A DNA stretch of 64,000 nt, taken from an uncultured virus (IMG/VR IMGVR_UViG_3300042380_000159) (Duplodnaviria > Heunggongvirae > Uroviricota > Caudoviricetes). The stretch is taken from IMG/VR virus record IMGVR_UViG_3300042380_000159. One strand, given 5' to 3'. Made by a program: the position numbers and the translations under genes. The notes under the pieces are model-generated. The model saw nothing but the letters and a program-made list of their open reading frames with translations, was not told the DNA's origin and ran no database searches. Shown here in pieces: positions 20,289-62,893 of this stretch; the stretch's first letter is position 1; each line of letters starts with the position of its first letter.

Positions 20289-20364
20289 GATGGTCAAAAA
20301 ACCCGGTGAAACTTGCGGCCGCGCGCACGCGGCTAAACCGTGGGGTTTGTATAACGCCAACCCC

Positions 20365-20703
20365 CTATGATCCGACCCGCCCCCCGTTGTTGCATTTTGC
20401 GGCAGTCTCCTGCCGTGTCTTCCTGCCGTGGCACCTCACGCACAGCGTTCTGAGATTCTCCATCACGTCCTGCCCGCCCTGTGCCTTGGGTGTGATGTGA
20501 TCGACGTGGGCTTCACGCTTGTCCGCACACACACGCCCACAGTCTTGGCAGGCCCATGCGTCACGCACTAAGACTCTTTGACGCAGGGCATACCACGCTC
20601 GTGAGCAGTAGCCTCGAGCAGCTGCGTTGGGCCTGGCTGAGTCGTCACGCCTTGGCTGTGTTCTCAGCCTGGGCGGCCTGTGGCTTGGTATGCGTGCTGG
20701 CAT
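20365..20703 (-). CDS. Terminase-associated HNH endonuclease
   Basis: CQDC...VDHITP...NLRTLC..CH. Confidence 0.9.
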   Translation of the reverse strand: MPARIPSHRPPRLRTQPRRDDSARPNAAARGYCSRAWYALRQRVLVRDAWACQDCGRVCADKREAHVDHITPKAQGGQDVMENLRTLCVRCHGRKTRQETAAKCNNGGRVGS

Positions 20704-20709
20704 GCGTTC

Positions 20710-20740
20710 AGCCTATGGGCCGCGTCCAGCCCGCTTGCAG
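20710..20740 (-). promoter_or_regulatory. Putative late promoter CTGCAAG-N18-TAGGCT
   Basis: Motif recurs six times upstream of late genes; 6 nt to the ATG. Confidence 0.65.
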
Positions 20741-20765
20741 CCGTCTTTCGCCGCTATAGCGCACT

Positions 20766-21086
20766 TCAGGCTGGCGGCTCTGGCAGCGGCATCCAGTGAG
20801 TGAACCCACGCATCGCCATGCACAAGTCGCCGCCCCAGTCGAGCGATTCGCCATCTAGTCTGGCGAGGCAGGTCGGCTCTGACAGGTTTGGGTTGAACCA
20901 AAGCACCCACTCGCCCTCGTCCGGCAGACGCTCGCCAACAGGAATCCACCGACGTTCAGATCGCAGGCGATTGATCTCACTTGCTGCCTCCTCCATCCAC
21001 GCCTCAAGCACGAACTCGTAGCAGCCGAGGTCTTCAGTGCGGTGGGCCAGCAGGCTTTCGATAGCGCCAACAACGTCTCGCTTCAC
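20766..21086 (-). CDS. DUF551-domain protein
   Basis: RWIPVGERLP...THWMPLPEPP. Confidence 0.85.
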   Translation of the reverse strand: MKRDVVGAIESLLAHRTEDLGCYEFVLEAWMEEAASEINRLRSERRWIPVGERLPDEGEWVLWFNPNLSEPTCLARLDGESLDWGGDLCMAMRGFTHWMPLPEPPA

Positions 21087-21109
21087 GACTCTCCCTTCGC
21101 TCAAGAGCG

Positions 21110-21430
21110 TCATTCAATCCCAAGAGCCTTGAATGCCACTCGCCGCAGGTCGGCAATGTGATGCTCTGCCGCCCGCATCGCCCCCGCTGATCCCGCACCT
21201 TCGGTCGGCCTGACGCCAGCATTCCAGAGATCATCCATAAGGCACTGCGCCTGCGCCATGCGAATAGTCAGGAGTGGCTTCATCTCGGCGTTTTCTGCAA
21301 TCGTCTCCCACTGAACGGTGGCGATCTTCGTCTCGCCGCCGTTGAGTCTGCCAAACGCTGCAATCTCAACACTGTCCGACCAGGGAGCCGCCTTCGCTCG
21401 CACCCTATCGTCGTAGTTCAGCATCGCCAT
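21110..21430 (-). CDS. Hypothetical accessory protein (slot B cargo)
   Basis: ORF with SD between conserved joints. Confidence 0.7.
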   Translation of the reverse strand: MAMLNYDDRVRAKAAPWSDSVEIAAFGRLNGGETKIATVQWETIAENAEMKPLLTIRMAQAQCLMDDLWNAGVRPTEGAGSAGAMRAAEHHIADLRRVAFKALGIE

Positions 21431-21457
21431 CAATGTCCCTCTCTGATTTCTGTAGCG

Positions 21458-21835
21458 TCACTTCGTCCGTTCCAGCAAGGCGCGAAGCGTGACCGCGCAC
21501 CGCTGGTGCATCTGGTCAGCGACAGTGACGCAGTGCGCCGCCTTAAATTCAATCGCCTCCCGCTCCTTGTCGGTGAGCCGCAGGCGGGCGATCTCGCCTT
21601 GGTACTTCGCGTCCGCTTGGTCTGCTGCGGCACGGAGTTCCTTTAGCCGCCCTTTCAGCCTAAAAATTTCATCGTCCAAAAATGCCCAATCGGATCGCGG
21701 AGACTTGCTGCGCAACTCTCCAATCACTGCCCGCAGTCCAATAATCTCGGCCCGCGCGTCCCGAAGGGTCTGATCCGCGCCTGCGAAGTCATCGTCCTCC
21801 AGCCAATCAGAAATCCGGTCTACAACGTCTTTCAT
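21458..21835 (-). CDS. Hypothetical coiled-coil accessory protein (slot C cargo)
   Basis: ORF between conserved joints. Confidence 0.7.
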   Translation of the reverse strand: MKDVVDRISDWLEDDDFAGADQTLRDARAEIIGLRAVIGELRSKSPRSDWAFLDDEIFRLKGRLKELRAAADQADAKYQGEIARLRLTDKEREAIEFKAAHCVTVADQMHQRCAVTLRALLERTK

Positions 21836-21887
21836 GTCTGCACCTGCGGCGTGTTGTGCAACTATCCGGCGATTCCGGTGGGTCCGC

Positions 21888-22106
21888 TCATACCAGCAAA
21901 CTCGTCAATTCGTAAGGAATGATCGCCCGAATTTCTTCCAGAATCTTCGCCGTCTCAGGCGACGGCTCGCCGTGATTGAGGACGGCCCGACAGCGGTTGT
22001 CGATCAGCTCCAGTGCGATCAGCGCCTCGCGGCCAGCCAGCGCGTAGCGATGCTCCCGCTCGTCATCCGGGTCGCTCAGGTCGAATTTCAGGATCGCGTG
22101 TGCCAT
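21888..22106 (-). CDS. Conserved 72-aa protein
   Basis: Ortholog of 57947-58165. Confidence 0.8.
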   Translation of the reverse strand: MAHAILKFDLSDPDDEREHRYALAGREALIALELIDNRCRAVLNHGEPSPETAKILEEIRAIIPYELTSLLV

Positions 22107-22432
22107 GTTTCGCCTTTCGCGAATTGCGAACGCCCAGATTGTATCAGCATTCATACGGGAAAAGTGTCATTTTTGATACGTTTTGGGAACACGTTCCTGC
22201 GTCGTGTCGCTGCTATTTACAAAACCTATGCACTTGCGCCGAACTACCTAGCCTTCGCTCTTCTCTGGTGCGATAGCGCACTGTCGCAGGGTGTGCCACT
22301 GGGGCGGCCCACTCGTCGCCAAGCCGTTGTCGGGCTGCGTTACGTCTCGCCCCAACCCGCCGTCAACGTCATGGCCGAGATGTGGCGTCCGGCCTGTTGA
22401 CGGCGAGCAAAGTGTTTTGTCTCTCTCTGGTG

Positions 22433-22672
22433 CTATAGCGCATCGACGGCCCGCGAGGCGAACCACTCGCGAGACTCATCGCTGGCCTTGTAGCCATCGT
22501 CGTCGCATTCCAGCCCTTCGACGCACTGGGCGTAGGCTGCGAAGGCAGTCAGGAACACCTCGCCGCACATGCCGATCTTCTGGCAAAGCGACCGGGCGTA
22601 TTCGTATGCCAGCGGCGGCAACTGGTTCTGCGGGATGTAAAGCATTTCCATCCCGCGCTTCACGGCATCCAT
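22433..22672 (-). CDS. Hypothetical accessory protein under its own promoter
   Basis: Strong SD GAAAGGAAGGTGAGG before the ATG. Confidence 0.75.
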   Translation of the reverse strand: MDAVKRGMEMLYIPQNQLPPLAYEYARSLCQKIGMCGEVFLTAFAAYAQCVEGLECDDDGYKASDESREWFASRAVDAL

Positions 22673-22696
22673 GCCTCACCTTCCTTTCGTGGCGTG

Positions 22697-22724
22697 ATTA
22701 TACCCCATCGGCAAGGCGGCGCAA
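22697..22724 (-). promoter_or_regulatory. Sigma70-like promoter TTGCGC-N16-TATAAT
   Basis: Conserved in unit 2 as TTGCGC-N16-TAGAAT (58852-58879). Confidence 0.75.
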
Positions 22725-22815
22725 TGCCTTTTCACGACCGCCTCTAAGGTGTATACGGTCGCGCCGAACTATCCGGAGATTCCGGATCGTTGCCGTATGT
22801 TGTGGGAAGAGCGCA

Positions 22816-23133
22816 CTACGCCATCGGCGGATCGGGCGGAAGCAACGCAACCGCTTCCGACCAGGGCAGCACCTCAACGCTCGCCCCCAGCACCGCCTTG
22901 TCCGCAGCCTCCCACATCGCGTGGAGCAAACCTCCTGGTTCGATCTCGGTCAGCAAGTCGCCGGGAAGCAACAGCCGACCGTCAACCAGCGTTCGCGGCC
23001 CTGGTCCGCACGCTGGAGAGCCATGCTGCCGGTGCAACTCTGCCAGCCGCACGGCCAGTTGCGCCGGGAACACCAGCGCAAAGCCGCGAGCATCGGCGTA
23101 GGAAATCGGCAGCGTCAGGTCTGCGAGTTTCAC
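22816..23133 (-). CDS. Conserved hypothetical protein
   Basis: Ortholog of 59605-59922. Confidence 0.8.
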   Translation of the reverse strand: MKLADLTLPISYADARGFALVFPAQLAVRLAELHRQHGSPACGPGPRTLVDGRLLLPGDLLTEIEPGGLLHAMWEAADKAVLGASVEVLPWSEAVALLPPDPPMA

Positions 23134-24014
23134 AGTTGCCTCCCTAGCGCCGTCTGGAACGTCTGCATGGCGGTATAAAACGCCGACGCCTGCGAGGCCG
23201 TCATCGACAGCCCTAGCGAGTACCCTTGCAGCGTTGCCGTGAGAAACTGGTCGGCCGTGCCTTGGTTGTTTCGGGCGAACACAAACGTAGCGCCTGGGCT
23301 GACCGAAGACCATGTATTTGCATTTGACACAGCCACTGTTAGGTTGAGGTCTGTGCCCTGCCTATATGCCTTAGCGTCGCTGCCATTTCGCATTGCGATG
23401 ATGTGGCCCGAACGGTTTGCGCCAGACAATGTGGCCCCCTCAATGCCGCTGTTAGTGGCACCGCCTGAGCGGTAATACAACTGGTTTAGTCCGCCGAACG
23501 CGAGGGCTTGCCAAGTTGCTCCAAGCACGCCACCGCCAAACGCACCGACAACGCAGTTGTTGGCCGTAATTGCCACTCGCGAGTACCACGACATATGCGT
23601 GTCGGTGTTCACCATCCCGGCGGTAACAGGGTCAAATCCTGTCGCCAGCCGCTTCGTAGAGCCGTCGCCAGTGAGCCCGCCACTCGTTGTCGTTTCAACG
23701 TAGTTAGCGGGGACAAAATTTCCGCTGACGTTAGTATCCGTTGCGTTGCCCCACTGCGTGCCCGTGCGGCTCGCGCCGCGATAAAGCGGAACGAGGCAGG
23801 CTTCTAAGCCGGTGCCGCAAAACAGATTCAACCGCAGGAGTGTTGCCCGCAGGCCCGATGTGGCGTCGATGCTGCGGCAGAAATCCGACACGGCCTTCAG
23901 CGTGGCAGGCGAAACAGTGCCGCCGTTGGCGATGACTGCGTTTCGCCAGACCTCCGCCTCCGGGTGGAACGCGCTGCTCGCACGAGGCCGAAGAAGCCGG
24001 GCGGACATAGGCAT
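23130..24014 (-). CDS. Beta-rich virion/adsorption protein candidate (LamG-like fold suspected)
   Basis: Homolog of 59922-60794; Gly/Thr/Asn-rich. Confidence 0.6.
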   Translation of the reverse strand: MPMSARLLRPRASSAFHPEAEVWRNAVIANGGTVSPATLKAVSDFCRSIDATSGLRATLLRLNLFCGTGLEACLVPLYRGASRTGTQWGNATDTNVSGNFVPANYVETTTSGGLTGDGSTKRLATGFDPVTAGMVNTDTHMSWYSRVAITANNCVVGAFGGGVLGATWQALAFGGLNQLYYRSGGATNSGIEGATLSGANRSGHIIAMRNGSDAKAYRQGTDLNLTVAVSNANTWSSVSPGATFVFARNNQGTADQFLTATLQGYSLGLSMTASQASAFYTAMQTFQTALGRQL

Positions 24015-31215: not shown

Positions 31216-31452
31216 TCAAGCGTCAGGCTCGGCCCGCCGCTGGGCGAAGTGCCGCTCTCGGCACTCTCGCGCCCGCTCTGCGATCTCGTCGGGCGTCGGG
31301 TCCACGATTCTTTTCCTGTACTTGCATACCCGATCCGGTATGCCGTGCTCGCGACGCAGTTCGTGCAGTCGTTGCCGCCGGATGCCGAGGTGCGCTGCGA
31401 TCACATCCGCAGGCACCCCGGCATCCCACATCTGGCGAAGCGTCTCTAGCAT
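31216..31452 (-). CDS. HTH protein
   Basis: LRQMWDAGVPADVIAAHLGI...DPTPDEIA. Confidence 0.65.
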   Translation of the reverse strand: MLETLRQMWDAGVPADVIAAHLGIRRQRLHELRREHGIPDRVCKYRKRIVDPTPDEIAERARECRERHFAQRRAEPDA

Positions 31453-32561
31453 CAGTCCTTCGCCAACGGCATGATGACCCCGGTGCAGTCGCCGCAGCGC
31501 AGCACCACCGCGCTCTGAGCGTCCACCGCCTCGACCTCGACGGGCTCGGCCTCATCCACGCCACGCAGGAACTCGACCACGAAGCCGGGGTCGAGCGCCA
31601 CGCTCGCCGTCTGGCCCGCTTCGAGCAGCCCGCACGTCACGCTCGACTGCCCCGCCTCGGCACTCTGAGCCGTCAGGTGAATGCCGTTCTCGACGAACGC
31701 GAACGTCACGCCCTTCGACTGCTCACTGGTCACGATGGCCGCCTGCCGTGTCGCCGCCAAGAGCTCAGCCCCGTTCACGAGCGTGGCCTTGGCATCCCGC
31801 TCGGGGATCACGTCACGCCACCGGGGGAAGCGTCCCTCGACGAGCCGGGCCGTCACCACCGTGCCGTCGATGGTCGCCACCACCTCGCGGTCGGTGGCCT
31901 CCAACTGCACCGCCCCCTCACTGTGCGAAGCGATGCTGCTGATGGTCAGGATCGCCCGCGCCGGGATCAGCGTGGTGGAGTCGTCCACCGCCTGGTCCAC
32001 TTCGATGCCGTAGGACGAGAGCCGCCGCCCGTCCGTGCCCACCAGCGTCACCGTGCCATCCTTCACCTCGACGAGCACCGCCCCGAGGGCGAACCGGCTC
32101 GAATCGGTGTCCGTGGCGTAGGCCACCGCCTTCACCGCCCGCACGAACTGATCGCACGGCACGCGGCAGATCGGCTTCACGGCGGTCGGCTCCCACCGTG
32201 GGAACTCAGCCGCATCCTCCGTGGGTAGCGTCCACGTTCCGCCGCCCACGCTCACGATGCAAGACGTGTCGCCGGGGGCCAGCGTCACCTCGTCGCCCGA
32301 GGCGGCCCCGAGGATCGCCTGCAAGCGGGCGAACGGGAGCAGCAGTGGGGCGTCCGTGTACGGCACCTCGGCCGACACCTGGAGCTCGAGATCACTCGCC
32401 GTGATCCCGCCGTTTGCCAGCAAAACGTTCAACAGGATCGGCTTCGGGCTGCGGTTGGCGACGGCCGCACGGACCGTTGCCATTGCACTTCGGAGCGTTG
32501 CCGTTGGGAGGGAGATGCCAGTAGTTCGAGTCTTTCGTCGTTCCTTCGTTGCTGTTGTCAT
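31452..32561 (-). CDS. dnaN: DNA polymerase III beta sliding clamp homolog
   Basis: PILLNVLL, ASDLE, TDGRRL, RLVEGRFP, VIMP. Confidence 0.9.
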   Translation of the reverse strand: MTTATKERRKTRTTGISLPTATLRSAMATVRAAVANRSPKPILLNVLLANGGITASDLELQVSAEVPYTDAPLLLPFARLQAILGAASGDEVTLAPGDTSCIVSVGGGTWTLPTEDAAEFPRWEPTAVKPICRVPCDQFVRAVKAVAYATDTDSSRFALGAVLVEVKDGTVTLVGTDGRRLSSYGIEVDQAVDDSTTLIPARAILTISSIASHSEGAVQLEATDREVVATIDGTVVTARLVEGRFPRWRDVIPERDAKATLVNGAELLAATRQAAIVTSEQSKGVTFAFVENGIHLTAQSAEAGQSSVTCGLLEAGQTASVALDPGFVVEFLRGVDEAEPVEVEAVDAQSAVVLRCGDCTGVIMPLAKD

Positions 32562-34752: not shown

Positions 34753-35574
34753 TTAAGTCAGGGCCGGTGTCCTCGGCGTGTTCTTCCGCAACTGGCTCCA
34801 ATCGCAATACGCCTGCTCAAACAACGCCGGGCTGCGGTGGCCAAGGTGCAGCCTCCCCGCGCCGGGTTTCTCCATTTCGCAATGCGTGGCACCTGAGCGG
34901 CGCAGCCACTTGGAACTGCCGCCGAGCCCCTGCTTGTCGAGCAGATCCCGCATCAGCCTGTGGGCTCGCCGCCGCTTGCAGGCCCAGCCGAGGATCAACC
35001 CGTTCGGGCTTTTCGCCAGCATCGCGTCGATGGCGTCCAAGCATGCGGGCGTGAGCGGCCTAGTGAGCGGGTCGCCCGTCTTGCTCTGAGTCCACGCGAG
35101 CGTGTCGCCGTCGATGTTGTCACGACTGAACGCCATGACATCGCCAAACCGGGCACCGCACTCGTAGGCCAGCAATATCCAGCACCGCAGGAACTGGCCG
35201 AGATCGGCCCCGCTGCGGAGCCGCTTGCCGTTGTAGTCGGCCGTGGCCTTCAGGAGTTGCTGAAGTTGGGCAACCGTCCACGCCTTCGTGGGTTTTTTGC
35301 GGGCCTTCACCGTCATCACGCCACGCGGGGCAACGTCCACAAGTTCGGCCTCGTAGGCGAACCGCCAGAGCGTCAAGAGGATCGTGCGTTCGGCACGCAC
35401 GGTGGTGCTCTGCAATTGCGATGAACGCACCCGCAGATAGCGATTCACGGCATCGCTGGATATTTCGCCGCACTTGGCCGCGATCCGCTTCACGTTCGCC
35501 GCGTAATGCACCGACACAATCCGCTCGGATAGGTAGCGTTCGGCCACCTGCTGAAAAGTCTTCTTGGCTTTCAT
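34753..35574 (-). CDS. Second, internal tyrosine recombinase of unit 1
   Basis: CGARFGD, SKTG, KWLRRS, LGH, Y. Confidence 0.85.
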   Translation of the reverse strand: MKAKKTFQQVAERYLSERIVSVHYAANVKRIAAKCGEISSDAVNRYLRVRSSQLQSTTVRAERTILLTLWRFAYEAELVDVAPRGVMTVKARKKPTKAWTVAQLQQLLKATADYNGKRLRSGADLGQFLRCWILLAYECGARFGDVMAFSRDNIDGDTLAWTQSKTGDPLTRPLTPACLDAIDAMLAKSPNGLILGWACKRRRAHRLMRDLLDKQGLGGSSKWLRRSGATHCEMEKPGAGRLHLGHRSPALFEQAYCDWSQLRKNTPRTPALT

Positions 35575-35674: not shown

Positions 35675-36100
35675 TTACGCCTCTCCCGCTTGGCCACCGC
35701 TGCCCTCTTGCGGGCTTCCCCCTGCGGCTGGGGCTGTTTCTTCTGCTTGATCCCCTTCCACGAGTCGTGCCACGCCATCGGCGTCTTCCTTCCAAGTTGC
35801 TGCGTCTTCCACGGTTCTCCTGGCCGAAAGCCACGCGCTCATCAGCCTGTTTGTCCAGCGGCCATCCCACTCCTCGCCATCCAGCGCGTCGATCAGCAGC
35901 ACCAAGCGGGCGTGTATCCACTTCGCCTTCCTGGCAATCTGCTGGTCGGTCAGCATGGGAAGCGGGTCCGGGCCTCGACGGCCCGTAGGCTTCGGGGCGG
36001 CGCGTGGCCGCCGCTCGAAGACCTCGGGCTGCCGGGCCTCGAACTCGTTCCACTCGCCGGTGCTCGGCGGATGGCCCTCGTTGATGCGACGGTCGCTCAT
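35675..36100 (-). CDS. Hypothetical protein
   Basis: ATGA-coupled to the upstream recombinase gene. Confidence 0.5.
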   Translation of the reverse strand: MSDRRINEGHPPSTGEWNEFEARQPEVFERRPRAAPKPTGRRGPDPLPMLTDQQIARKAKWIHARLVLLIDALDGEEWDGRWTNRLMSAWLSARRTVEDAATWKEDADGVARLVEGDQAEETAPAAGGSPQEGSGGQAGEA

Positions 36101-36756
36101 CGGGCGTGTGCCTCCGCGTCGATCTCCTCCGCGTCGAAGTGCTCCACGCCGTTGTCTTCGGGCTCGGCGTGCTCGAGCCGCTGCACGGCGGCTCTGGTCT
36201 GCGTCACGCGAACGGTCTGCTGCGGCCGGGCCGCCTGATAGTCCTGTGCCTCCTCGGCCGTCACGAGGCCACGCAGGATGTCGGGGAACGCATCGCGGAG
36301 AGCGAAGCCCCTGGCCCGCAGTTGCAGCATCCGCTTCGGATATTGCGTCCACGGTCCCGACTTGCCCCACAGGCTGGCCCGCTTGGCGTCCTCCACGGAG
36401 AACTCGACACGCACCGGGGCGTGGCCCCTTCGCTTGGCGATGCAGACCGCCTTCGGGTTGGGCGTGCCCTCCCCCTCGATCGTCTCCTCGATGCCCTCGC
36501 ATACTGGCGAGGCAAGGCACAGAGCCTTCGCGGAGTCGCCCCAAATGCTGGGGCGGCCGTTGATGTTGGCGATGCACTGCAACGCCTGCATCGGGGCAAG
36601 GCCGAGCTCCGCACCGAAGGCGATCGCCCCGGCACACTTCTCGGGCTGGCCCTGGTAATCCTTCGGCACGAGGCCGCTCGCGGCGGCGATCTTGCCCAGC
36701 GTCATCAAGTCGCCCACGGAAGAAACCCGCAGGCCGGTGGTCAGGTCAGTGCTCAT
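36097..36756 (-). CDS. RecT/Red-beta-like ssDNA annealing protein
   Basis: ELGLAPMQAL..I..INGRPSIWGD...W.QYPKRML..RA. Confidence 0.8.
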   Translation of the reverse strand: MSTDLTTGLRVSSVGDLMTLGKIAAASGLVPKDYQGQPEKCAGAIAFGAELGLAPMQALQCIANINGRPSIWGDSAKALCLASPVCEGIEETIEGEGTPNPKAVCIAKRRGHAPVRVEFSVEDAKRASLWGKSGPWTQYPKRMLQLRARGFALRDAFPDILRGLVTAEEAQDYQAARPQQTVRVTQTRAAVQRLEHAEPEDNGVEHFDAEEIDAEAHAR

Positions 36757-36859
36757 TCGACATTCCTTTCGTTTCTTCGTCCTTTGAAAAGCCGCTCGCC
36801 GGTCCATCGGTCTGCGGCACGAATCGCCTCCTGCACCCGGCGTCCTGCCGGGGATTTCC

Positions 36860-37861: not shown

Positions 37862-38752
37862 ATGATGCTGTCAGAGCTTTTTTCCCGCGAATATGCCCCT
37901 CTTCGACGCCTTGGGCAGAAGAGCATCAACTGCTACATGGTCAGCCTGCGGCACTTCGACAGACACTTGGGCGAGTCGGCACGGTTGGACCATTTGACGG
38001 ACTTGACGGTTGCCCGGTTCCTTGCCGCCCGTGAGCGGGAAACCTGCCGGGCCACGGCGGCGCGCGATCGCGTGCAGCTGCTGGCCCTCTGGCGGTATGC
38101 CGCCCGGAAGCGGATGAAGGCCAGTGATGGCACCCTGCTCGACTTCCCCGAGGTGCCGATCATGCGAGCCCCGGCCCGCGTCCCGGTGGCCTACACGTCG
38201 GAAGACGTGGCCCTGCTGATCCGCGAGGCCAGGAGGTTCACCGGCACCGTGGCCGGGATTCCCGAGGCCGATTGGTGGTCAAGTTTGTTGCTTTGCCTGT
38301 GGGAGTCGGGCGAACGGATCAACGCCGTTATGCACACCAAGTGGCGGGAAATCGACACGGCAGGCCGCCGCATCACTTTCCGGGCTGAAACCCGCAAGAA
38401 CCAGACACGCGACCTAGACCGTCAGATTTCGCCTACGCTGGCCGCTTGGCTGTCTGGGCGCATCCAGAGCCAGAATGCCCTCGTGTGGCCCTGGGACCGC
38501 AACGCATGCCTTCTGTGGAAGCGTATGCAGGGGATCGCCAGCCGCGCCCGCGTCCAGTATCGTGGCTTCCACGGGATTCGCCGTGCCGCCGTGTCGTATG
38601 CGGAGGCAGCGTGCCCAGGAGCAGGCCAGAAACTGGCGGACCACTCGAGCCCAGCGATCACCCAGAAGAGCTACCTCGATCCACGGATTGTGCCGCAAGG
38701 TCCATCCGCACCGGATCTGCTGCCGAAACTGGATTTGACGCCGCCGACGTAA
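37862..38752 (+). CDS. int: Tyrosine recombinase/integrase
   Basis: SGERIN, FHGIRR, ADH, YLDP; diverged homolog of 1315-2202. Confidence 0.92.
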   Translation: MMLSELFSREYAPLRRLGQKSINCYMVSLRHFDRHLGESARLDHLTDLTVARFLAARERETCRATAARDRVQLLALWRYAARKRMKASDGTLLDFPEVPIMRAPARVPVAYTSEDVALLIREARRFTGTVAGIPEADWWSSLLLCLWESGERINAVMHTKWREIDTAGRRITFRAETRKNQTRDLDRQISPTLAAWLSGRIQSQNALVWPWDRNACLLWKRMQGIASRARVQYRGFHGIRRAAVSYAEAACPGAGQKLADHSSPAITQKSYLDPRIVPQGPSAPDLLPKLDLTPPT

Positions 38753-45276: not shown

Positions 45277-46614
45277 CTAGTTCAGGATCTCCACGGTGCC
45301 GACCTGGCCGTTTCGGTTGATCTGCTCCAGCAGTTGCACCTGCTTCTGTTCGGCCTCGCTCGGCCCGGCGGTTGTTCCGGCTTGGTCCATGCGTTGCCGA
45401 AGTGAATCGGATGCTGAGTCCACTGCTGCATTGAAGTTTGCCTGAAACCGATTCAGAACGCTGTTTGACGCATCGGACGCCACCTGCGCCTCAAGCTGGG
45501 CAATCCGCTCGGCACGCTTCCTGTTTTCCTCCTCGATGGCGGCGGCGTTGGCCACGGGCATGCCGAAGCCGTCTCTGGTTGCGCCAGCGCCCTGCATGGC
45601 CGCCTGCGCATCCGCCCGCAGTTTGTCCAGTTCCTTCTCGGTCTCGCTGCGAATGTCTAGCCCAAGGATCGGCGCGAACTTTTTGATGAAGGCTTCAATG
45701 AACTGCGCCAACTGAAAGAACGCATTGCCAGCCAATTTGATGAAATCAAGCAATCCGCTAGCGACCTGCTGGGCGATCTGTTGCGGGCCAGCCTGCTTAA
45801 TCACGCCAAGAAGCTCCTGTGCGATCGTGCTAATCGGCCCCGCAAGCTCGCCGAGGATCGAGCCAGCCAGGCCCTTCACCGTTGCCCACACGGCTGCAAA
45901 CGAATCATTCATGTTGTCGATGGCCTTTACGGCGTCTTCGCTCACCACCTGCCCGAGCGAAACAGCCTGCTCACGCATCTGAGTCAGAGCCCCAGGGCCA
46001 AGCGTGAACAACTCGCCAAGCTCGATGCCGCCCTTGCCGAAGAACTTCACGGCCGTGGCGGCCCGCTCGGCTGGGTCAGCGATCCGAGAGATGGCATCAA
46101 CCACCTGCTCAAATTGCTTCTCTGGCGATTGGGTCTTCAGTTCCTCAAACACGAGGCCGAGCGCCTCAAACTTCTTTTGTGCCTTCTCGTCAAGCGACGC
46201 TTGGCCGATGGCGATGGTCAACTTCTGCATCTGCTTGGCAAACGACTCGACGCTCACGCCCGTGTCGGCGGCGGCCCTGGCATATGCCTGCAACGCCTCA
46301 ACGCCGACCCCCGTGCGATTGGCCACGTCGTTCAATGCGTCCAACTCTTCGCCAACGCTCAAGGCGAACTGCGTGACGCCGGTCGCTGCGCCGGTCACCG
46401 CACCGCTAAGACTCAGAAAGGCATTGGTGGCGGCCTGGATTCCGCCGAGGGCGAGCTTGCCAATCTCAATGTTCTTGAGCGTCCCGAGATCGGCAGACGC
46501 CTTCTTGCCAGCCTCGCCCATTGAGTCGAGCTTGGCGTTCACGTCGGCCACAGCCTGAGCCAGCTGGGCCGTGTTCGCGCTGATCTGCATCGCCAAGCCG
46601 AGTGCCGTACTCAT
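45277..46614 (-). CDS. Tail tape measure protein (445 aa)
   Basis: FFGKGG motif; position; homologous N-terminal region to 8098-10290. Confidence 0.82.
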   Translation of the reverse strand: MSTALGLAMQISANTAQLAQAVADVNAKLDSMGEAGKKASADLGTLKNIEIGKLALGGIQAATNAFLSLSGAVTGAATGVTQFALSVGEELDALNDVANRTGVGVEALQAYARAAADTGVSVESFAKQMQKLTIAIGQASLDEKAQKKFEALGLVFEELKTQSPEKQFEQVVDAISRIADPAERAATAVKFFGKGGIELGELFTLGPGALTQMREQAVSLGQVVSEDAVKAIDNMNDSFAAVWATVKGLAGSILGELAGPISTIAQELLGVIKQAGPQQIAQQVASGLLDFIKLAGNAFFQLAQFIEAFIKKFAPILGLDIRSETEKELDKLRADAQAAMQGAGATRDGFGMPVANAAAIEEENRKRAERIAQLEAQVASDASNSVLNRFQANFNAAVDSASDSLRQRMDQAGTTAGPSEAEQKQVQLLEQINRNGQVGTVEILN

Positions 46615-56563: not shown

Positions 56564-56623
56564 ACGGCTAAATCCTAACTTCCAATTTCAACCAAACGTA
56601 CGCAGAGCAAACGACCGGGGTTT

Positions 56624-57037
56624 TTATTGGGCAAAGGTGGGGTGATTTGACCCGCCCTCCGCCGCCGAATTTCCCCGTCCGCCCGCAGAAAAAAGCGTGT
56701 TTTCGGCAGGTTTTTTGACTGTTTTTCTTTTTTCGGCTTCGTTTTGCTCGCGTCGCGTCTTCCTGCCGTGGCAAGCGATGCACAAGCATTGGCCGTTCGT
56801 TACGTCGTAACGCTCGCCTCCCAATGCGACAGGTACAACGTGATCTGCGTGGTTAGAGTTGCATACAGTGCCGCAGGACCGGCAGGCCCACCCGTCACGG
56901 GTCAACACAGCCTGCCGCCATGCCCGGTGCCTCTTGTCGGTATAGCCCCGTGCATATGCGTTGGGCCGCCCTGCATCGTCGCGGCGTCGCGGGGGGCATA
57001 GCCTCGGCGGTATGTGGGGGGGGATACGTTGCGGCAT
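56624..57037 (-). CDS. Terminase-associated HNH endonuclease
   Basis: CRSC...ADHVVP...NGQCLCIACH. Confidence 0.9.
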   Translation of the reverse strand: MPQRIPPHIPPRLCPPRRRDDAGRPNAYARGYTDKRHRAWRQAVLTRDGWACRSCGTVCNSNHADHVVPVALGGERYDVTNGQCLCIACHGRKTRREQNEAEKRKTVKKPAENTLFSAGGRGNSAAEGGSNHPTFAQ

Positions 57038-57076
57038 GGTGGGGGGGGTACTTCACGCACAAACGTGCATGCGTTC

Positions 57077-57107
57077 AGCCTATGCCTAGCGTCCAGTTGG
57101 CTTGCAG
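57077..57107 (-). promoter_or_regulatory. Putative late promoter CTGCAAG-N18-TAGGCT
   Basis: Equivalent of 20710-20740 with a diverged spacer. Confidence 0.65.
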
Positions 57108-57132
57108 CCTTACATCGCCGCTATAGCGCACT

Positions 57133-57447
57133 TCAGCCCGGCGGCTCGGGGAGCGGCATCCAGTGGGTGACTTGAAAGTTGCTGCGGCCTGGGGCCGAGA
57201 AGTACGCGGTTCCTGCTTCGGTGCTGAAGTTCAGCCATGCGAGCAAAAGGTCGCGGTACTCCGACACAAGCACCGTGTCACCAGCCTTCGGCAGCTCCTC
57301 GCTCACCGGAATCCATCGCGAACTAGCGGCAATGATTTCTGCCTTACACTCCATCAGCAGCTCTTCTGGAAACGGCACGTCCTCCCACCCTGCTGTCTCG
57401 CAGTCGGAAAGTTCTTTGTCGATCCGGGCAATGATGTCGCTTTCCAT
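57133..57447 (-). CDS. DUF551-domain protein
   Basis: RWIPVSEELP...THWMPLPEPP. Confidence 0.85.
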   Translation of the reverse strand: MESDIIARIDKELSDCETAGWEDVPFPEELLMECKAEIIAASSRWIPVSEELPKAGDTVLVSEYRDLLLAWLNFSTEAGTAYFSAPGRSNFQVTHWMPLPEPPG

Positions 57448-57461
57448 GTCTCCACTTTCGC

Positions 57462-57677
57462 TCAGTAGCGCATTCCCTGCGACTTTTCCCATCGTCGCAG
57501 CCATGCGTGAAAGTTCTTCCACACTCCAGCGGGCGGGTTCTGGTTCCTCAGCGTTCTGCCGTCCTTCGCAACAAACAGCGGGCCGAACTGCATGGAGTAA
57601 TCCCAACGCCACGTTCGCCCATTGTGACAGGTCGAACCGGATGCGGCGTGCCATGAGTCAATGAAGCAGCGTCCCAT
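57462..57677 (-). CDS. Hypothetical accessory protein (slot B cargo)
   Basis: MGRCFIDSW...; unrelated to 21110-21430. Confidence 0.65.
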   Translation of the reverse strand: MGRCFIDSWHAASGSTCHNGRTWRWDYSMQFGPLFVAKDGRTLRNQNPPAGVWKNFHAWLRRWEKSQGMRY

Positions 57678-57700
57678 GTCTTTACCTGATTTCAGTAGCG

Positions 57701-57892
57701 TCACCGAATGTGCGTCAGCCCCATCATCGCCGCCAACTCGCCAGGATCGGTCGGCGTGGATCGCGGCTCCGCCAGGGCGACGATGCACCGCTCCATGCGG
57801 GCGATGTCCTCGCGGGCCTTCTCCTGCCACGCCTCAAGCTCTTTGATGCGGTTTTGCAGGAGCTCGGTTCGATACTGTGCGTGAGCGTCCAT
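57701..57892 (-). CDS. Hypothetical accessory protein (slot C cargo)
   Basis: AAGGAGG SD; not alignable by eye to 21458-21835. Confidence 0.65.
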   Translation of the reverse strand: MDAHAQYRTELLQNRIKELEAWQEKAREDIARMERCIVALAEPRSTPTDPGELAAMMGLTHIR

Positions 57893-57946
57893 CTGTCCCT
57901 CCTTGCGGCGTGTTGTGCAACTATCCGGCAATTCCGGTGGGTTCGC

Positions 57947-58165
57947 TCATACCAGCAAACTCGTCAATTCGTAAGGAATCAACGCCCGTACTTCTTCCAG
58001 AATTCTCTCCAACTCTGGCGTCGGCTCGCCGCGATTGAGGACGGCCCGACAGCGGTTGTCGATCAGCTCCAGCGCGATCAGCGCCTCGCGGCCCGCGAGG
58101 GCATAGCGATGCTCGCGGGCGTCGTCGGGGTCAGCGAGGTCGAACTTCAGGAGAGCGTGTGCCAT
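57947..58165 (-). CDS. Conserved 72-aa protein
   Basis: Ortholog of 21888-22106. Confidence 0.8.
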   Translation of the reverse strand: MAHALLKFDLADPDDAREHRYALAGREALIALELIDNRCRAVLNRGEPTPELERILEEVRALIPYELTSLLV

Positions 58166-58379
58166 GTATAGCGAGGTTACTACGGTTTATCCCGGTTTAT
58201 CAGTTTCCGATAACTTTGGCCCAGATTGTATCCGAACTCATACGGAAAGCGTATCGTTTTCGATATGTTTCGGGCATCCTATTTTGGGAATATTGCCCCT
58301 CACGCAATTATCGCGAAATACAAAACCCAGGTACTTGTGTCGAACTACCGAGCCTTCGCTCTTCTGGTGCTATAGCGCA

Positions 58380-58826
58380 CTAACAGCGAAACGGCTTCAC
58401 CTTCTCCTGCCATGTGACAATCAGATGGCGCGTGGCGTCGTCGGCGTACTCCATCGTCGTGATGTCGAACTTGCCATCAGTCTCCACGCCAAGCGCGGCC
58501 GGATGCCGCTTGTCGTAAATGCCGTCAGGAAGGCTCACGCTTTCTCGTTGGGGCAGGCCCTTGTGGCGGTATTCGACCTTGTAGCCTTCGTCAGCCTCCT
58601 CAACCGCGACCGGATAAAAGTCACCCAGCCGCTCCACAAGCAGGGCCGTCAACCTTCCGCCAGTTGGCTGGTGGGCATCATAGGCGCAGGTAAAGGCCAG
58701 TTGCGCCCGGTCGAAGTCATGCTCGGAAATCTTCCCGGCACAGAGGTCAAGAGCCGCCTGCATGATGTATTCGCGGCACTGGTCGGCTTGCTCAACCGAT
58801 CCTCGTCCGACGCAAACGTACCCCAT
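58380..58826 (-). CDS. Hypothetical accessory protein under its own promoter
   Basis: SD GAAAGGAAGGTGATC; unrelated to 22433-22672. Confidence 0.75.
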   Translation of the reverse strand: MGYVCVGRGSVEQADQCREYIMQAALDLCAGKISEHDFDRAQLAFTCAYDAHQPTGGRLTALLVERLGDFYPVAVEEADEGYKVEYRHKGLPQRESVSLPDGIYDKRHPAALGVETDGKFDITTMEYADDATRHLIVTWQEKVKPFRC

Positions 58827-58914
58827 GAGATCACCTTCCTTTCGGGGCGTGATTCTACCCGGCTGGCAAGCGGGCGCAATGCCTTTTCCGACCGTCTCTA
58901 AGGTGGATAGCGCA

Positions 58915-59523
58915 CTACATCGCCGCCAGTAGCGGAAGGTCGATAGCCGCGCCCCATTGCTCGGCCATAGCTCTGGCAATCCCTTCGTATGTCTTGCTTC
59001 TGATCTTCCAGCGGTCGGGCGACGGGGCCAGCTTGTTCTGCCCGCTCGCGGTCTGGTTCTCCCACCTATCCCGATGCTCAAGGACGCTGGTGGGCCGCAG
59101 GGGTGGCAATCCCTTCAGCCAGAGACAGGTGGCCTTCGACTCTGGGTGGCCGAACTGCCAAGGCTGAATGGTCTGGTCGGGCTTCCGCCAGAGCGATGAC
59201 ATGATGCAGACCGGGTTTTCAATGGCGATATGCGGAATGTCGGCCTTCGCCAGCCGCATGAAAAACGACACGCTCGCCTGCTGCCTGCCGTCCATCCGCT
59301 TCGCCTGGAAGTGCCTAGCACCGCTCACCGACAGGTCGGTGCATGGCGGATGGGCAATCATCAAATCCCAAGGGTAGTCCAGAACGTCACGAACGTCGCC
59401 TTGGTAGTGCGGGCCTGGCGTCTCGGTGGGCAGGAGATCGCACGACATAGCCTCATGCCCAAGAGCCAAGAAGGCGTCTCGGACGCTGCCGCTGTATTCG
59501 CAGGCGATGAGTACCCGTGCCAT
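58915..59523 (-). CDS. Short phage DNA cytosine methyltransferase
   Basis: VLIACEYSG, HPPC, IENP, QPWQFGH. Confidence 0.82.
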   Translation of the reverse strand: MARVLIACEYSGSVRDAFLALGHEAMSCDLLPTETPGPHYQGDVRDVLDYPWDLMIAHPPCTDLSVSGARHFQAKRMDGRQQASVSFFMRLAKADIPHIAIENPVCIMSSLWRKPDQTIQPWQFGHPESKATCLWLKGLPPLRPTSVLEHRDRWENQTASGQNKLAPSPDRWKIRSKTYEGIARAMAEQWGAAIDLPLLAAM

Positions 59524-59604
59524 TTCCCGAGCCTACGCGCATAGCCAAATCTGGCAACAGCATTTCCGAGAGCGAATTGCGCTCTCTTGTGGGTGTACGG
59601 CAAC

Positions 59605-59922
59605 TCAGCCGATAGGCGGGTCGGGCGGCAGCATCGCCACCGCATCGGCCCACGGGATCACTTCCACGCTTGCCCCTAGCACGGCCTTGTCGGCCGCTTC
59701 CCACATGGCATGGAGCAGGCCGCCGGGTTCGATCTCGGTCAGAATGTCCGCACACAGCATGAGCCGCCCATCGGTCAGCGTGCGCGGGACCGGAACGCAG
59801 TTGGGCGAGCCGTGGCTCGCGTGCAGTTCCGCTAGCCGGGCCGCAAGCGCGGGAGTGAACACCAGGGCGTACCCCTTGGCGGCCTCGTAGGAGATCGGGA
59901 GCGTGAGGTCTGCGAGCGTCAT
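59605..59922 (-). CDS. Conserved hypothetical protein
   Basis: Ortholog of 22816-23133. Confidence 0.8.
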   Translation of the reverse strand: MTLADLTLPISYEAAKGYALVFTPALAARLAELHASHGSPNCVPVPRTLTDGRLMLCADILTEIEPGGLLHAMWEAADKAVLGASVEVIPWADAVAMLPPDPPIG

Positions 59923-60794
59923 TAGTTGCGCCCCAGTGCTGTCTGAAAGGCCACGACCGCCGACGAGAACGCTGCCGCCTGCGAGGCCGTGAACGACGTT
60001 CCGATGGAATAGCCTTGCAGGGTGGCCGCAAGAAACTGGTCGCCGGTATTGCCGCTGTCGGCGCGATTGCGGGCAAACACCGATGGAGCGCCTGGGCTTG
60101 TGACCGACCAGTTATTCGTGTTGGTCATGCTCACGGCGAGGTTGAGGTCAACGCCGTTCCGGTAGACCTTCGCATCGTTGTTGGTTCGCTGGCACAGAAG
60201 GTGGCCGGAACGGTTTGCCCCCGACCATGCTGCACCTTCGATGCCGCAGTTACTGGCACCACCAGAGCGGTAGTAGATGAGATTTAGGCCGCCGAAAGTT
60301 AGTGCGCCAAAGGTGGCCTGCGCTGTTTGGCCGCCGAATGTGGAGAGCGGCGAATTGTTCGCCGTGATCTGGGCGCGTGAGTACCAAGAGCAATGCGTAT
60401 CCGTGTGCGAGATGCCAGCCGCCACCATATCCATGCCGGTCTGTAGCCGCTTGTTGCTGCCGTTGCCGGTCAGCCCGCCCGTCGTGCCCGTCTCAACGTA
60501 ATCGCCCGCCACGAAGTTGCTGTTCGTGTCGATGGTGTTGCCGAACTGCGTCCCGCCGAGCGATGTTCCGCGATAGAGCGGGACGAGAGCCGCCGCGAGG
60601 CCGGTGCCACAAAATAAGTTCACGCGGGACAGTCGTGAGCGGATGCCTGCCGTATCAACCGCCCGGCAGAAGGTTTCAACCGCCGCGAAGGTTGAAGCCG
60701 ATACGGTGCCGCCGTTGGCGATGACGCGGGTCCGCCAACTTGCGGCCTCGGGGTGGGCCGTCGCTCGGAAGTAGCCGATCTTGCCTGCGAGCAT
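59922..60794 (-). CDS. Beta-rich virion/adsorption protein candidate
   Basis: Homolog of 23130-24014. Confidence 0.6.
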   Translation of the reverse strand: MLAGKIGYFRATAHPEAASWRTRVIANGGTVSASTFAAVETFCRAVDTAGIRSRLSRVNLFCGTGLAAALVPLYRGTSLGGTQFGNTIDTNSNFVAGDYVETGTTGGLTGNGSNKRLQTGMDMVAAGISHTDTHCSWYSRAQITANNSPLSTFGGQTAQATFGALTFGGLNLIYYRSGGASNCGIEGAAWSGANRSGHLLCQRTNNDAKVYRNGVDLNLAVSMTNTNNWSVTSPGAPSVFARNRADSGNTGDQFLAATLQGYSIGTSFTASQAAAFSSAVVAFQTALGRN

Positions 60795-62893
60795 TAGAAG
60801 TTTTGCGCCGCTGTGCCGTACCAGTTCGTGCCGTCTGAGACGAACACCAAGATGTCGCGCTTGTTGCTCGTCGCCGTGATCGTCGGCGCGGTGCCTCCCG
60901 CCCACAGGACGGAAGTGAACGTCGCCGTGAACGTCCCGCCCTGAGTCAAAATGAGCGTGATCGAAGCCCCAGCGGTCGGGCTGGGCATCGTGAATGCGCA
61001 GTTGCCCGAGAGCGTCACGGTCTGCACGGAGCCGGTGGTCAGGGCCAGCGTGGTCGATGTGCCGCTGTTGCCCACCGTTTGCGTCTGCTCAAGGACGACG
61101 GGCAGGCGGGCGAGGGCGACGGTGCCGGTGGTGATGTCAGCCCCGGAGTGGACGTGCGCCGTGGGCGTCCTCGCGTCACTGAGCCGGGCGTCATTCGCCG
61201 CGACGAAATCCGTCGTTGCCGCTGCCGCTGCGGTGCCGAGCGTGGGGCGGCCCGTGAGGTCCGAATAGGCTCCTGTCCTGCCTGCCGTGGAAATGCCGCT
61301 GCCGATCAGATCGGTTCCGGCACGATCCGGGTAGACATCGCTCTGCGTTGCAAACGTCCAATAGCCAGCGTTCGTGCCGCCGCCCTTGTAGCGGCTTGCC
61401 TTCACCCACTCGCTTTCGGTGGGAAGCCGATACTTCGCGCCAGCGTTGGCCGCAATCACGACGTTCGATGCGGTAATCGTGTAGGCACCGTCCTCGGTCG
61501 TGGAAGATGACTGAGCGCCGGTCGGCTTGCCGTTATGCAGCCAGTTGCAGTAGCGCACGGACGCATACCAAGTAACAAAATTTACCGGCTTGTTGCGTGC
61601 GTTCGCCCGTGCGGCGTAGGTGAACGAGCCCGACGAGCCACTTCGCGTGATGCCGCCAGCGGCATCTGTTCCCATCCGCGTGTCATACAGGCCGTTCGTG
61701 TCGGTGGCCGCCACAGCGTTCAGGAAGGCGACATACTCCGCGTTCGTGACGGCGTAGCGGCCGATGCGGTACTCATAGGCAACGCCGCCGACGCCGCTCG
61801 CGCTGTTCGCGTTGCCGACATCCCCAACGGTGACGAACCCGCCGTATCCGTTGGCGTCTGACGGCGATGCGACGCGAAACCCGACGTTGGTAAATCGGTT
61901 CGTCGGTGATACCGCGATGCCGTCCCAGACATAGGTAATCGGGTACGTTCCGCCTTCGCCATCCGACAAGTACGAGCCGCCACGCATCATCGACAGCGAC
62001 GGGTTGTCGCGAGCCGCGCCGCCGAACGTGCCGATCCACTCCTCCAGGTTGCCGTGCTGGTCGAACGTGCCGTAGTAGCTGGGACGCCCCGTCGTGCCGA
62101 CCGCAAACGGGCCGGGATTTTGGCCGTAGTTGGCCGAATTGCCGAGCAGGTAGCGGGCGTCCAGCGAGGCCGTGAGTCCGACCACCTCTTGTGCGCTATG
62201 CGTATGAGAGACGGCAGCCGCCCCGATGTCGGCGGCCGTAAGGGCGTCAGAGCCGCCCGTGGCGTGGGTGCTCTTGTGGGCCGCCAGGGCGAGCGAGCCG
62301 CTCGAGGTCGTGAGGCCGGAGCCGATCGACAGTGCCACCGTCTGCGTGCCGGAGTTGTAGGTCACTGGAGCAGTCGCCGCGACGACGCCCGATGGGCCTT
62401 GTGGCCCCGTCGCCCCTGTGGCTCCTGTCGCGCCGGTAGCGCCCGTCGCGCCGGTAGGACCGGTCGGACCTGCCGGGCCTTGGTCGCCAGTGTCACCCTT
62501 TGGCCCTTGCGGACCGGTAGCACCAGTCGCCCCCGCAGGGCCTTGAGGTCCGATGTCGCCTTGATCGCCCTTTGGTCCCTGCGGCCCCTGCGGTCCAGTG
62601 GCACCGGTCGCGCCTGTGGAGCCCGTCGCGCCCGCTGGGCCTTGCAAGCCAACGTCGCCCTGGTCGCCCTTCGGGCCTTGCGGGCCGGTGGCTCCAGTTG
62701 CGCCGGTCGGGCCTGCCACGCCTTGCGGTCCCTGCGGACCTTGTGGACCGGCCGGGCCTTGCTCGCCCTGCGGACCCTGCGGGCCAGCGGCACCGCTCGG
62801 GCCAAAGCCACCGCTTACCGTGGCGTCGATCTTGGTCTCGCCCACGCTCGCCGTGATCTGCTGCCCGCCGCTGACGTTCGCATTGATCGGCAC
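60794..62893 (-). CDS. Collagen-like fibre with permuted FGE-sulfatase/C-type-lectin domain
   Basis: Long Gly-X-Y tract; [44 protein letters not shown]. Confidence 0.85.

Follow-up and report, generated by a model that had tools for sequence, protein, structure and literature searches.

How can two related phages carry unrelated genes between the same intergenic sequences? The question is raised by a 64,000-nucleotide (nt) stretch of DNA from an uncultured virus of the Caudoviricetes (IMG/VR IMGVR_UViG_3300042380_000159), which was analyzed at its full length and is referred to here as the window. Self-comparison shows that it contains two colinear, related phage units, offset by 36.1-38.7 kilobases (kb), whose structural genes are 83% identical across 6 kb by self-BLASTN. 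Nearly all genes of the window lie on the minus strand. Each unit has an accessory interval on that strand (20741-22818 in unit 1 and 57108-59605 in unit 2) in which the gene boundaries carry one family of 23-26 nt sequences, which we call linkers, and the genes between them, which we call cargo, vary. We consider it probable that the linkers are expression adaptors doubling as short homology for recombination.

Between the HNH gene on one side of the interval and a gene of 165 (unit 1) or 105 (unit 2) amino acids (aa) on the other, self-BLASTN aligned the two units in only four patches (Table 1). The cargo at three corresponding places differs in length (106 vs. 71, 125 vs. 63, and 79 vs. 148 aa). 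In the same order, BLASTP gave E = 32, no alignment, and E = 0.26, and hhalign gave probabilities of 0.1, 4.1, and 0.4% from shallow profiles of 1-3 distinct sequences each. Within the reach of such profiles, both methods agree with a first-pass annotation of the bare sequence, which had described three cargo slots without visible homology. The DUF551 proteins encoded in both units share 31% identity.

The linkers have a common architecture. Box 1, (G)TGCGCT(A/C), lies on or beside the stop codon of the upstream gene, whereas the purine-rich, Shine-Dalgarno-like box 2, AGAGA(C/G)NG, is fixed at +13 to +20, leaving a class-specific core of 9 nt between them. Anchored on CGCT, 70 distinct copies gave the consensus (TGA)AGTGCGCT(A/C), with box 2 base counts of A 56, G 55, G 54, A 60, and G 63. 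Six classes are told apart by the sequence after CGCT: ...CCCACAA... in class D, ...CACCTTAGAGA... in E, ...GCACCAGA... in F, ...GAAATCAGAGAGGGAC in C, ...GAGCGAAGGGAGAG in B, and ...GCGGCGAGAGACGG in A. Identity between classes is 48-60% across 24 nt compared with 26% for random 24-mers, a comparison biased by how the copies were picked. The stop codon, TGA or TAG, may precede, overlap, or follow the motif in all three frames. Because its frame floats relative to box 1, the motif is a nucleotide signal rather than a peptide signal. Box 2 stands a few nt ahead of many start codons and, judging from its letters, would usually serve as the Shine-Dalgarno sequence of the next gene, although the next start codon after E and F linkers can be at least 70 nt away.

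To locate linkers in the window, we used a weight matrix trained on 67 linkers from relatives, leaving the window out, with a threshold of 12 bits. There were 12 matches on the minus strand, 11 of them inside the two intervals (20761, 21109, 21457, 22278, and 22813 in unit 1; 57128, 57470, 57700, 58377, 58912, and 59600 in unit 2). The remaining minus-strand match was at 45589, and the plus strand had a single match at 62194. Across 50 Markov shuffles, the mean was 0.58 matches per strand and the maximum was 3. All five pairs of joints quoted in the first-pass annotation are present in the sequence as it claimed, but the last pair does not mark the same slot, since 22808-22818 belongs to a D-class linker and 58907-58917 to an E-class linker. 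Their counterparts are degenerate, with the unit 2 D linker at 59580-59605 and the unit 1 E copy at about 22735-22760. The same annotation had seen a shared promoter and Shine-Dalgarno sequence in the last slot. A conserved block of 80 nt with TATAAT or TAGAAT and the Shine-Dalgarno sequence AGGAAGGTGA is indeed present in both units, but a sigma-70 consensus scan called no promoter-like site in either interval (20300-23400 and 56600-60000).

We then considered relatives of the two units. Using the 72-aa protein conserved in both intervals, 58 IMG/VR loci were retrieved. Removal of 11 near-duplicates and 2 loci in which the gene had been missed by the open reading frame (ORF) caller resulted in 47 non-redundant loci, comprising 45 IMG/VR relatives and the two window units. 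Motif discovery in these loci, a check proposed in the first-pass annotation, ranked TGCGCT first around stop codons: in an unbiased count it was the top 6-mer, present in 63 of 325 distinct contexts versus 2.3% of background windows (p = 8e-39), followed by GTGCGC, GCGCTA, AGAGAC, and AGAGAG. Likewise, of 831 GCGCT or GACGCT sites, 121 fell between -14 and +10 relative to a called stop, a stretch that accounts for 4.5% of positions. A matrix survey at 10 bits or more, in which no order was imposed, found 187 coding-strand matches against 18 on the opposite strand. All but two of the 187 were no more than 2.5 kb from the 72-aa gene, and this zone makes up 58% of the sequence.

The classes follow the order D-E-F-[72-aa gene]-C-B-A in 45 of the 47 loci, and they stay with their position irrespective of cargo rather than traveling with it. 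Content varies in every slot between neighboring linkers: slot B>A is filled in 18 loci and empty in 12, with 10 cargo families; E>F is filled in 10 and empty in 15 (9 families); D>E in 7 and 9 (5 families); 0>C, which starts at the 72-aa gene (family 0), in 8 and 4 (7 families); and C>B in 6 and 6 (3 families). Empty slots retain both flanking linkers, 26-50 nt apart. Families 3, 5, 19, 20, 36, and 96 each occur in at least two slots. Cargo with an identifiable family consists mostly of DNA modification enzymes, namely two N6/N4 methylase families, two C5-methylase families, the phrog_757 methylase of unit 2, a Dam-like protein, and Mom; the remainder is DUF551 proteins and ORFans. Fixed order, up to 10 families per slot, and filled and empty states together bear out the central claim of the first-pass annotation, that conserved joints hold swappable genes.

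Fillers of empty slots are often short hairpins (GTCAAG-N5-CTTGAC; CCGAGCAATCTTCGG), seen repeatedly in different phages, and one of these hairpins contains a perfect TTGACA. DUF551 genes occur as tandem pairs in L044, L045, and L054, and lake contigs contain a joint that goes back 177 inside the unit 2 DUF551 gene (57139-57315), such that duplication at this slot appears common. The IMG/VR fragment L137 has two E linkers, and its F linker is succeeded by a C-like linker without an intervening 72-aa gene, implying that even the "conserved" central gene can be absent.

Cassettes can be followed from one slot to another. The family 96 cassette of unit 1 (21110-21430) is 89% identical across 368 nt to one in L049, with homology starting inside box 2 (CAGAGAG) and ending at box 1 (TGACGCT). 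In unit 1 this cassette comes after linker C, and in L049 before it. There are also chimeric linkers, which join the head of one class to the tail of another. To quantify where homology ends, we counted the borders of blocks having at least 93% identity between non-redundant loci. Linker spans, constituting 2.3% of the sequence, contained 77 of 225 internal block ends, which is about 15-fold over chance. Left ends clustered at -6 to -1 and right ends at +12 to +24 of the linker, and a looser block search showed the same trend.

Independent contigs from four lake runs break at D and A linkers. An 8,353-nt lake contig matches unit 2 only between 57104, in the tail of linker A, and 59593, in linker D; beyond both points it diverges. 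Another, of 1,114 nt, passes from 59587 in the D linker through a box 1 stretch to 51 nt of conserved block (58882-58832) and reaches 57133 in the A linker after about 335 nt of other sequence. An X9 contig shows complete identity to the window as far down as 57104 and diverges beyond, and many lake contigs have only 57115-57165 in common with the window, that is, the end of DUF551 and linker A. Linker A is also a switch point between at least two unrelated downstream modules (57104-57133 and 20741-20766; L004, L008, and L022), which are either HNH-small terminase-large terminase or clustering families 9-8-1-1-1-11. Divergence begins directly after ...GGCTGC, and L004 combines accessory genes as in unit 2 with another packaging and structural block downstream.

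We propose that six related linkers in fixed order would form a scaffold between the early genes and the HNH and terminase genes. As the linkers would be the only homology between otherwise unrelated neighbors, relatives sharing a cell could exchange the DNA between them. Co-infecting or co-resident phages might do so, and the window itself holds two in tandem, an arrangement of siblings that would by itself favor recombination between them. We infer that the route is homologous recombination on short, slightly diverged homology, most plausibly by the RecT-type annealing protein and exonuclease of the phage or by host recombination. The unit 1 RecT (Table 1) is a candidate for the recombinase acting at linkers, and the phage also encodes an exonuclease. 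Rad52-like phage recombinases have been found experimentally to make mosaics on diverged homology, according to the account in PMC3945230. The cargo of a slot would thereby be replaced or, leaving the slot empty, lost, and now and then it would move to another slot; a newly arrived gene would join a transcribed operon with a ribosome-binding site already in place ahead of it. Block borders are enriched in linkers, and repeat-guided gene exchange, as the first-pass annotation had put it, is the best reading of the locus.

Several observations weigh against this reading. The first-pass annotation proposed testing whether breakpoints fall in the joints, and 148 of the 225 recent block borders lie elsewhere. 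For a methyltransferase also present in the distant relative L059, the shared sequence stops precisely at the two ends of the ORF, and no canonical linker adjoins it. Moreover, borders at linker edges are expected under any mechanism because linkers are the sole conserved sequence, so that crossover positions are not proven by them, and the border statistics would look alike for crossovers in linkers and for random joins filtered by selection. For these reasons we infer the exchange step rather than observe it. No recombination intermediates or circles were seen. The matrix used in the survey was trained on the same loci, and gene calls in the relatives came from a simple heuristic based on ORFs and GC content at third codon positions (GC3). 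Linkers also persist in empty slots and, between diverged pairs, they are more alike (0.73-0.81) than third codon positions of the neighboring conserved gene (0.48-0.52), a comparison biased by matrix picking. This persistence and conservation above synonymous sites suggest that box 1 has a function of its own.

The linkers might primarily be cis-acting expression elements, either a translation-initiation or RNA signal or a boxA-like site for Nus loading by which transcription would continue across foreign cargo, with the mosaic arising by illegitimate recombination and selection for intact genes. The strict coding-strand orientation, the fixed spacing of the boxes, their retention in empty slots, their conservation, and the position of box 2 ahead of start codons are all in keeping with such an element. 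In addition, 27 of 70 linkers have C at +4 (CGCTC) and many continue as CGCTCTT, the first 7 letters of lambda boxA (5'-CGCUCUUA-3'), which is described in PMC2724277 as part of the nut site and followed by a spacer and the boxB stem-loop. Most linkers read CGCTA, unlike boxA, and no boxB-like hairpin signal follows. Linkers fold no better than shuffles (mean minimum free energy of -7.97 vs. -7.25 +/- 3.1), the window has no Rfam match, and a terminator scan was at or below shuffle level. A hairpin reading was discarded, in that TGCGCT...AGCGCA pairs exist in some copies and yet the whole set folds like shuffles. We take the linkers to bear some resemblance to promoters of single-subunit RNA polymerases, and no gene for such a polymerase is evident. 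What this account leaves unexplained are the chimeric linkers and the cassette 96 junctions inside common boxes. As a sufficient explanation it is rather unlikely, but it is compatible with the adaptor reading rather than exclusive of it.

A stronger proposal is that the linkers constitute an active, self-maintaining cis element whose fixed-spaced boxes are read by a host or phage factor. For example, they might be a boxA-like Nus-factor site that protects foreign cargo against Rho-dependent polarity, or exchange might be triggered by a nuclease or annealing machine that targets them. We regard this as unlikely. If true, the region would be a dedicated phage gene-capture platform that parallels integrons in function, works on a different principle, and is specialized for anti-restriction cargo such as methyltransferases and Mom.

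Integrons themselves offer a more literal model, in which a dedicated recombinase would recognize the linkers, and cassettes would be excised and inserted as circles. Integron arrays combine IntI with attC sites and consist of mostly promoterless single-gene cassettes in one orientation. The attC sites travel with each cassette; they are imperfect inverted repeats, several tens of nt long, that form hairpins. The accessory intervals are similar in that single genes are arrayed in one orientation behind common expression signals with content that varies between relatives, and unit 1 has two tyrosine-recombinase-like proteins (1279-2202 and 34753-35574). Yet none of three recombinases in the window matched an integron-integrase model. 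Their NCBIfam matches were either absent or weak and of XerC/XerD type (19-33 bits against cut-offs of 220-335), and the single model with "integron integrase" in its description, XerA_Arch, scored 21 bits against a cut-off of 220. None of the three genes is inside an accessory interval. Linkers are short, asymmetric, without attC-type folding, and tied to position rather than cargo, and empty slots keep both linkers where a site-specific system is expected to leave one recombined site. The "integron-like" label of the first-pass annotation is not supported, and we consider such a system very unlikely.

An equally doubtful possibility is gene conversion driven by a phage endonuclease, for instance the HNH protein encoded next to linker A, that would cut a relative's linkers and have repair copy the cassette. 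Free-standing homing endonucleases of T-even phages act in this way, cutting a site after which repair copies the donor, and their sites are long, asymmetric, and degenerate. The linkers share these properties and the HNH gene adjoins linker A in both units, but many relatives with full linker sets have the other packaging module with no HNH gene there, and the HNH protein falls in the terminase-associated PHROGs 589 and 144. Lastly, it is scarcely credible that nothing was exchanged and the cargo represents fast-diverged, vertically inherited orthologs: small ORFans can outrun detection and the available profiles are shallow, but cargo of unequal length lacks BLASTP or hhalign similarity, a single slot may contain methyltransferases with unrelated folds, Mom, DUF551, or no gene, and identical families occupy different slots, which effectively refutes this alternative.

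How do the linkers relate to known systems? Short conserved boundary sequences are said to be part of the modular theory of lambdoid phage evolution (Susskind and Botstein 1978; Clark et al. 2001), in which homologous recombination is proposed to take place at them. The window shares with that idea a short conserved junction between flanks that are unrelated in different phages, such as linker A before either of two packaging modules. It differs in that nearly every boundary within 2-2.5 kb belongs to a single two-box family with its order kept. Since boundary sequences, in the discussion of the idea in PMC3029335, are missing at most junctions, a dense and ordered set is unusual.

The closest system in principle is the promoter early stem-loop (PeSL) cassettes of T4-type phages. 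As described in PMC2839356, PeSLs are repeated intergenic motifs in hyperplastic regions, spanning from an upstream stop codon to a downstream Shine-Dalgarno sequence and start codon. They are about 100 base pairs (bp) long, carry a strong sigma-70 promoter and a terminator stem-loop, and belong to lytic myoviruses. They flank ORFans and are proposed there and in PMC4122927 as homologous-exchange sites for insertion, deletion, or replacement of single genes. Linkers similarly mark the edges of ORFans within a hyperplastic region, at places where relatives differ by indels and replacements. They differ in being 23-26 nt long, in forming six ordered positional classes, in belonging to temperate siphovirus-like phages, and in having neither a called promoter nor a stem-loop signal, small hairpins occurring only as fillers of empty slots.

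A third comparison is with the start-associated sequences (SAS) and extended SAS (ESAS) of Cluster K mycobacteriophages. According to the description in PMC3203893, SAS have a 13-bp consensus located 3-7 bp before the start codon, overlapping the ribosome-binding site and sometimes the upstream stop codon, and ESAS have 17-bp inverted repeats. Like SAS, linkers are asymmetric, point in one direction, are restricted to the non-structural region, and precede various gene families, a likeness that also favors a role in expression. However, their sequence is different, their best-conserved box is at the stop rather than the start codon, and the passages on SAS in PMC3203893 do not report them as exchange points or ordered slots. 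Overall, the linkers are best read as the boundary-sequence or PeSL principle in a new, unusually regular form. Given that identifiable cargo is mostly DNA modification enzymes, the platform probably lets phages re-equip rapidly against host restriction. The dense linkers, ordered classes, chimeras, and cassettes found in two slots make the question of exchange directly testable, and a 23-nt adaptor of this kind, which accepts any insert and brings its own stop codon and ribosome-binding site, may serve phage engineering.

The system looks confined to one clade. Searching IMG/VR for exact instances of box 1-N9-box 2 gave 93 stretches. Of the 93, 51 had at least two matrix matches on one strand, and 35 had the 72-aa gene no more than 1.5 kb away. 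The seven multi-hit loci without that gene that were examined all carry gene families of the same phage group. This group consists of temperate siphovirus-like lake phages, and the window sequence occurs in public runs from lake-water and freshwater metagenomes. The nearest record (G001, a fragment of 17.6 kb) does not include the accessory region. Among GenBank phages, the unit 1 interval has no DNA relatives and the unit 2 interval matches only at its methyltransferase. The large terminase is below 50% identity to any record and no host is indicated. Two scans of GTDB representative genomes, one with the 72-aa protein and one with its alignment, returned zero matches. This protein has zero matches in Pfam, PHROG, and NCBIfam, and occurs in the ESM Atlas only in viral hypothetical clusters. 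Its AlphaFold model is a helical hairpin with a predicted local distance difference test (pLDDT) score of 71.6, for which Foldseek found nothing in the PDB at E <= 0.001.

Table 1. Coordinates of linkers, cargo, and other features in the window, with hairpin-filled empty slots of relatives.
Feature	Coordinates	Strand	Remarks
Unit 1, D-class linker TAGTGCGCTCTTCCCACAACATACGG	22793..22818	minus	26.2 bits; at stop codon of 165-aa gene 22816-23313
Unit 1, degenerate E-type linker (~22735-22760) and conserved block with TATAAT and AGGAAGGTGA ahead of cargo start codon	22676..22760	minus	86% identical to 58831-58909
Unit 1, cargo, 79 aa, no family	22433..22672	minus	unrelated to unit 2 cargo in that place
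Unit 1, F-type linker head with cargo stop codon GATGCGCTATAGCACCAGAGAGAGAC	22420..22445	minus	assigned by reading; not among matches of at least 12 bits
Unit 1, second F-class linker CAGTGCGCTATCGCACCAGAGAAGAG	22258..22283	minus	17.8 bits
Unit 1, conserved 72-aa gene (family 0), helical	21888..22106	minus	conserved upstream block 22107-22282
Unit 1, cargo, 125 aa (family 3)	21458..21835	minus	
Unit 1, C-class linker AGTGACGCTACAGAAATCAGAGAGGG	21437..21462	minus	25.4 bits
Unit 1, cargo, 106 aa (family 96)	21110..21430	minus	relative L049 holds same cassette one slot earlier
Unit 1, B-class linker AATGACGCTCTTGAGCGAAGGGAGAG	21089..21114	minus	29.4 bits
Unit 1, DUF551 protein	20766..21086	minus	PF04448, E 4e-10
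Unit 1, A-class linker AAGTGCGCTATAGCGGCGAAAGACGG	20741..20766	minus	28.0 bits; ahead of HNH gene 20365-20703 (PF01844)
Unit 2, degenerate D-class linker AGTTGCCGTACACCCACAAGAGAGCG	59580..59605	minus	13.4 bits; after 105-aa gene 59605-59922
Unit 2, cargo in slot D>E, DNA methyltransferase, 202 aa	58915..59523	minus	phrog_757, E 1e-71; slot empty in L049, L038
Unit 2, E-class linker TAGTGCGCTATCCACCTTAGAGACGG	58892..58917	minus	30.6 bits
Unit 2, cargo, 148 aa, no family	58380..58826	minus	conserved block 58831-58909 precedes
Unit 2, F-class linker TAGTGCGCTATAGCACCAGAAGAGCG	58357..58382	minus	26.1 bits
Unit 2, conserved 72-aa gene (family 0)	57947..58165	minus	
Unit 2, cargo, 63 aa	57701..57892	minus	
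Unit 2, C-class linker	57680..57705	minus	17.2 bits
Unit 2, cargo, 71 aa	57462..57677	minus	
Unit 2, B-class linker GAATGCGCTACTGAGCGAAAGTGGAG	57450..57475	minus	16.2 bits
Unit 2, DUF551 protein	57133..57447	minus	PF04448, E 8e-12
Unit 2, A-class linker	57108..57133	minus	21.2 bits; ahead of HNH gene 56624-57037
Aligning patch, linker A and last DUF551 codons	20700-20803/57067-57170		84.6%
Aligning patch, 72-aa gene with upstream block	21845-22282/57904-58381		76%
Aligning patch, 80-nt block ahead of last cargo gene	22676-22755/58831-58909		86%
Aligning patch, region of 105/165-aa gene	22823-23967/59612-60756		67%
Unit 1, RecT-family single-strand annealing protein	36097..36807	minus	PF03837 E 9e-7, phrog_561 E 7e-39
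Unit 1, integrase at low-coordinate end	1279-2202	plus	
Unit 2, integrase at low-coordinate end	37862-38752	plus	
Hairpin-filled empty slot, L020	4730-4800		
Hairpin-filled empty slot, L008	4440-4490		
Hairpin-filled empty slot, L029	60-115		
Hairpin-filled empty slot, L038	4830-4930		

As shown in Table 1, unit 1 has two F-type linkers. The roughly 135 nt between them (22284-22419, minus strand) contain no convincing gene and may be the remnant of a lost cassette.

The two units (1-37700 and 37700-64000) lie head to tail and are prophage-like, related but distinct; neither att repeats at the units nor tRNAs were found within the window. In minus-strand order, the early genes of unit 1 are RecT, a tyrosine recombinase-like gene, a replication initiator, a beta-clamp, RusA, a methyltransferase, and small genes. 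These are followed by the accessory interval and then HNH, small and large terminase, portal, protease, capsid, and tail genes, and the exonuclease, with the plus-strand integrase at the end of the order. Unit 2 has the same layout from 64000 down to about 37700. The second tyrosine-recombinase-like gene of unit 1 (34753-35574, minus strand, 273 aa) lies in the early region between RecT and the replication genes and matches phrog_1 with E 4e-23, while its Pfam score falls below the cut-off. The beta-clamp gene (31452-32561, minus strand) encodes a complete three-domain DNA polymerase III beta clamp. Upstream of the unit 2 accessory region and away from the tail genes, 60794-62893 (minus strand) encodes a protein of 699 aa combining collagen triple-helix repeats with an FGE-sulfatase-like domain, which PHROGs label tail fiber and which has no unit 1 counterpart. 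Near the corresponding position, relatives carry proteins with Laminin_G_3, fn3, or Mtd_N domains.

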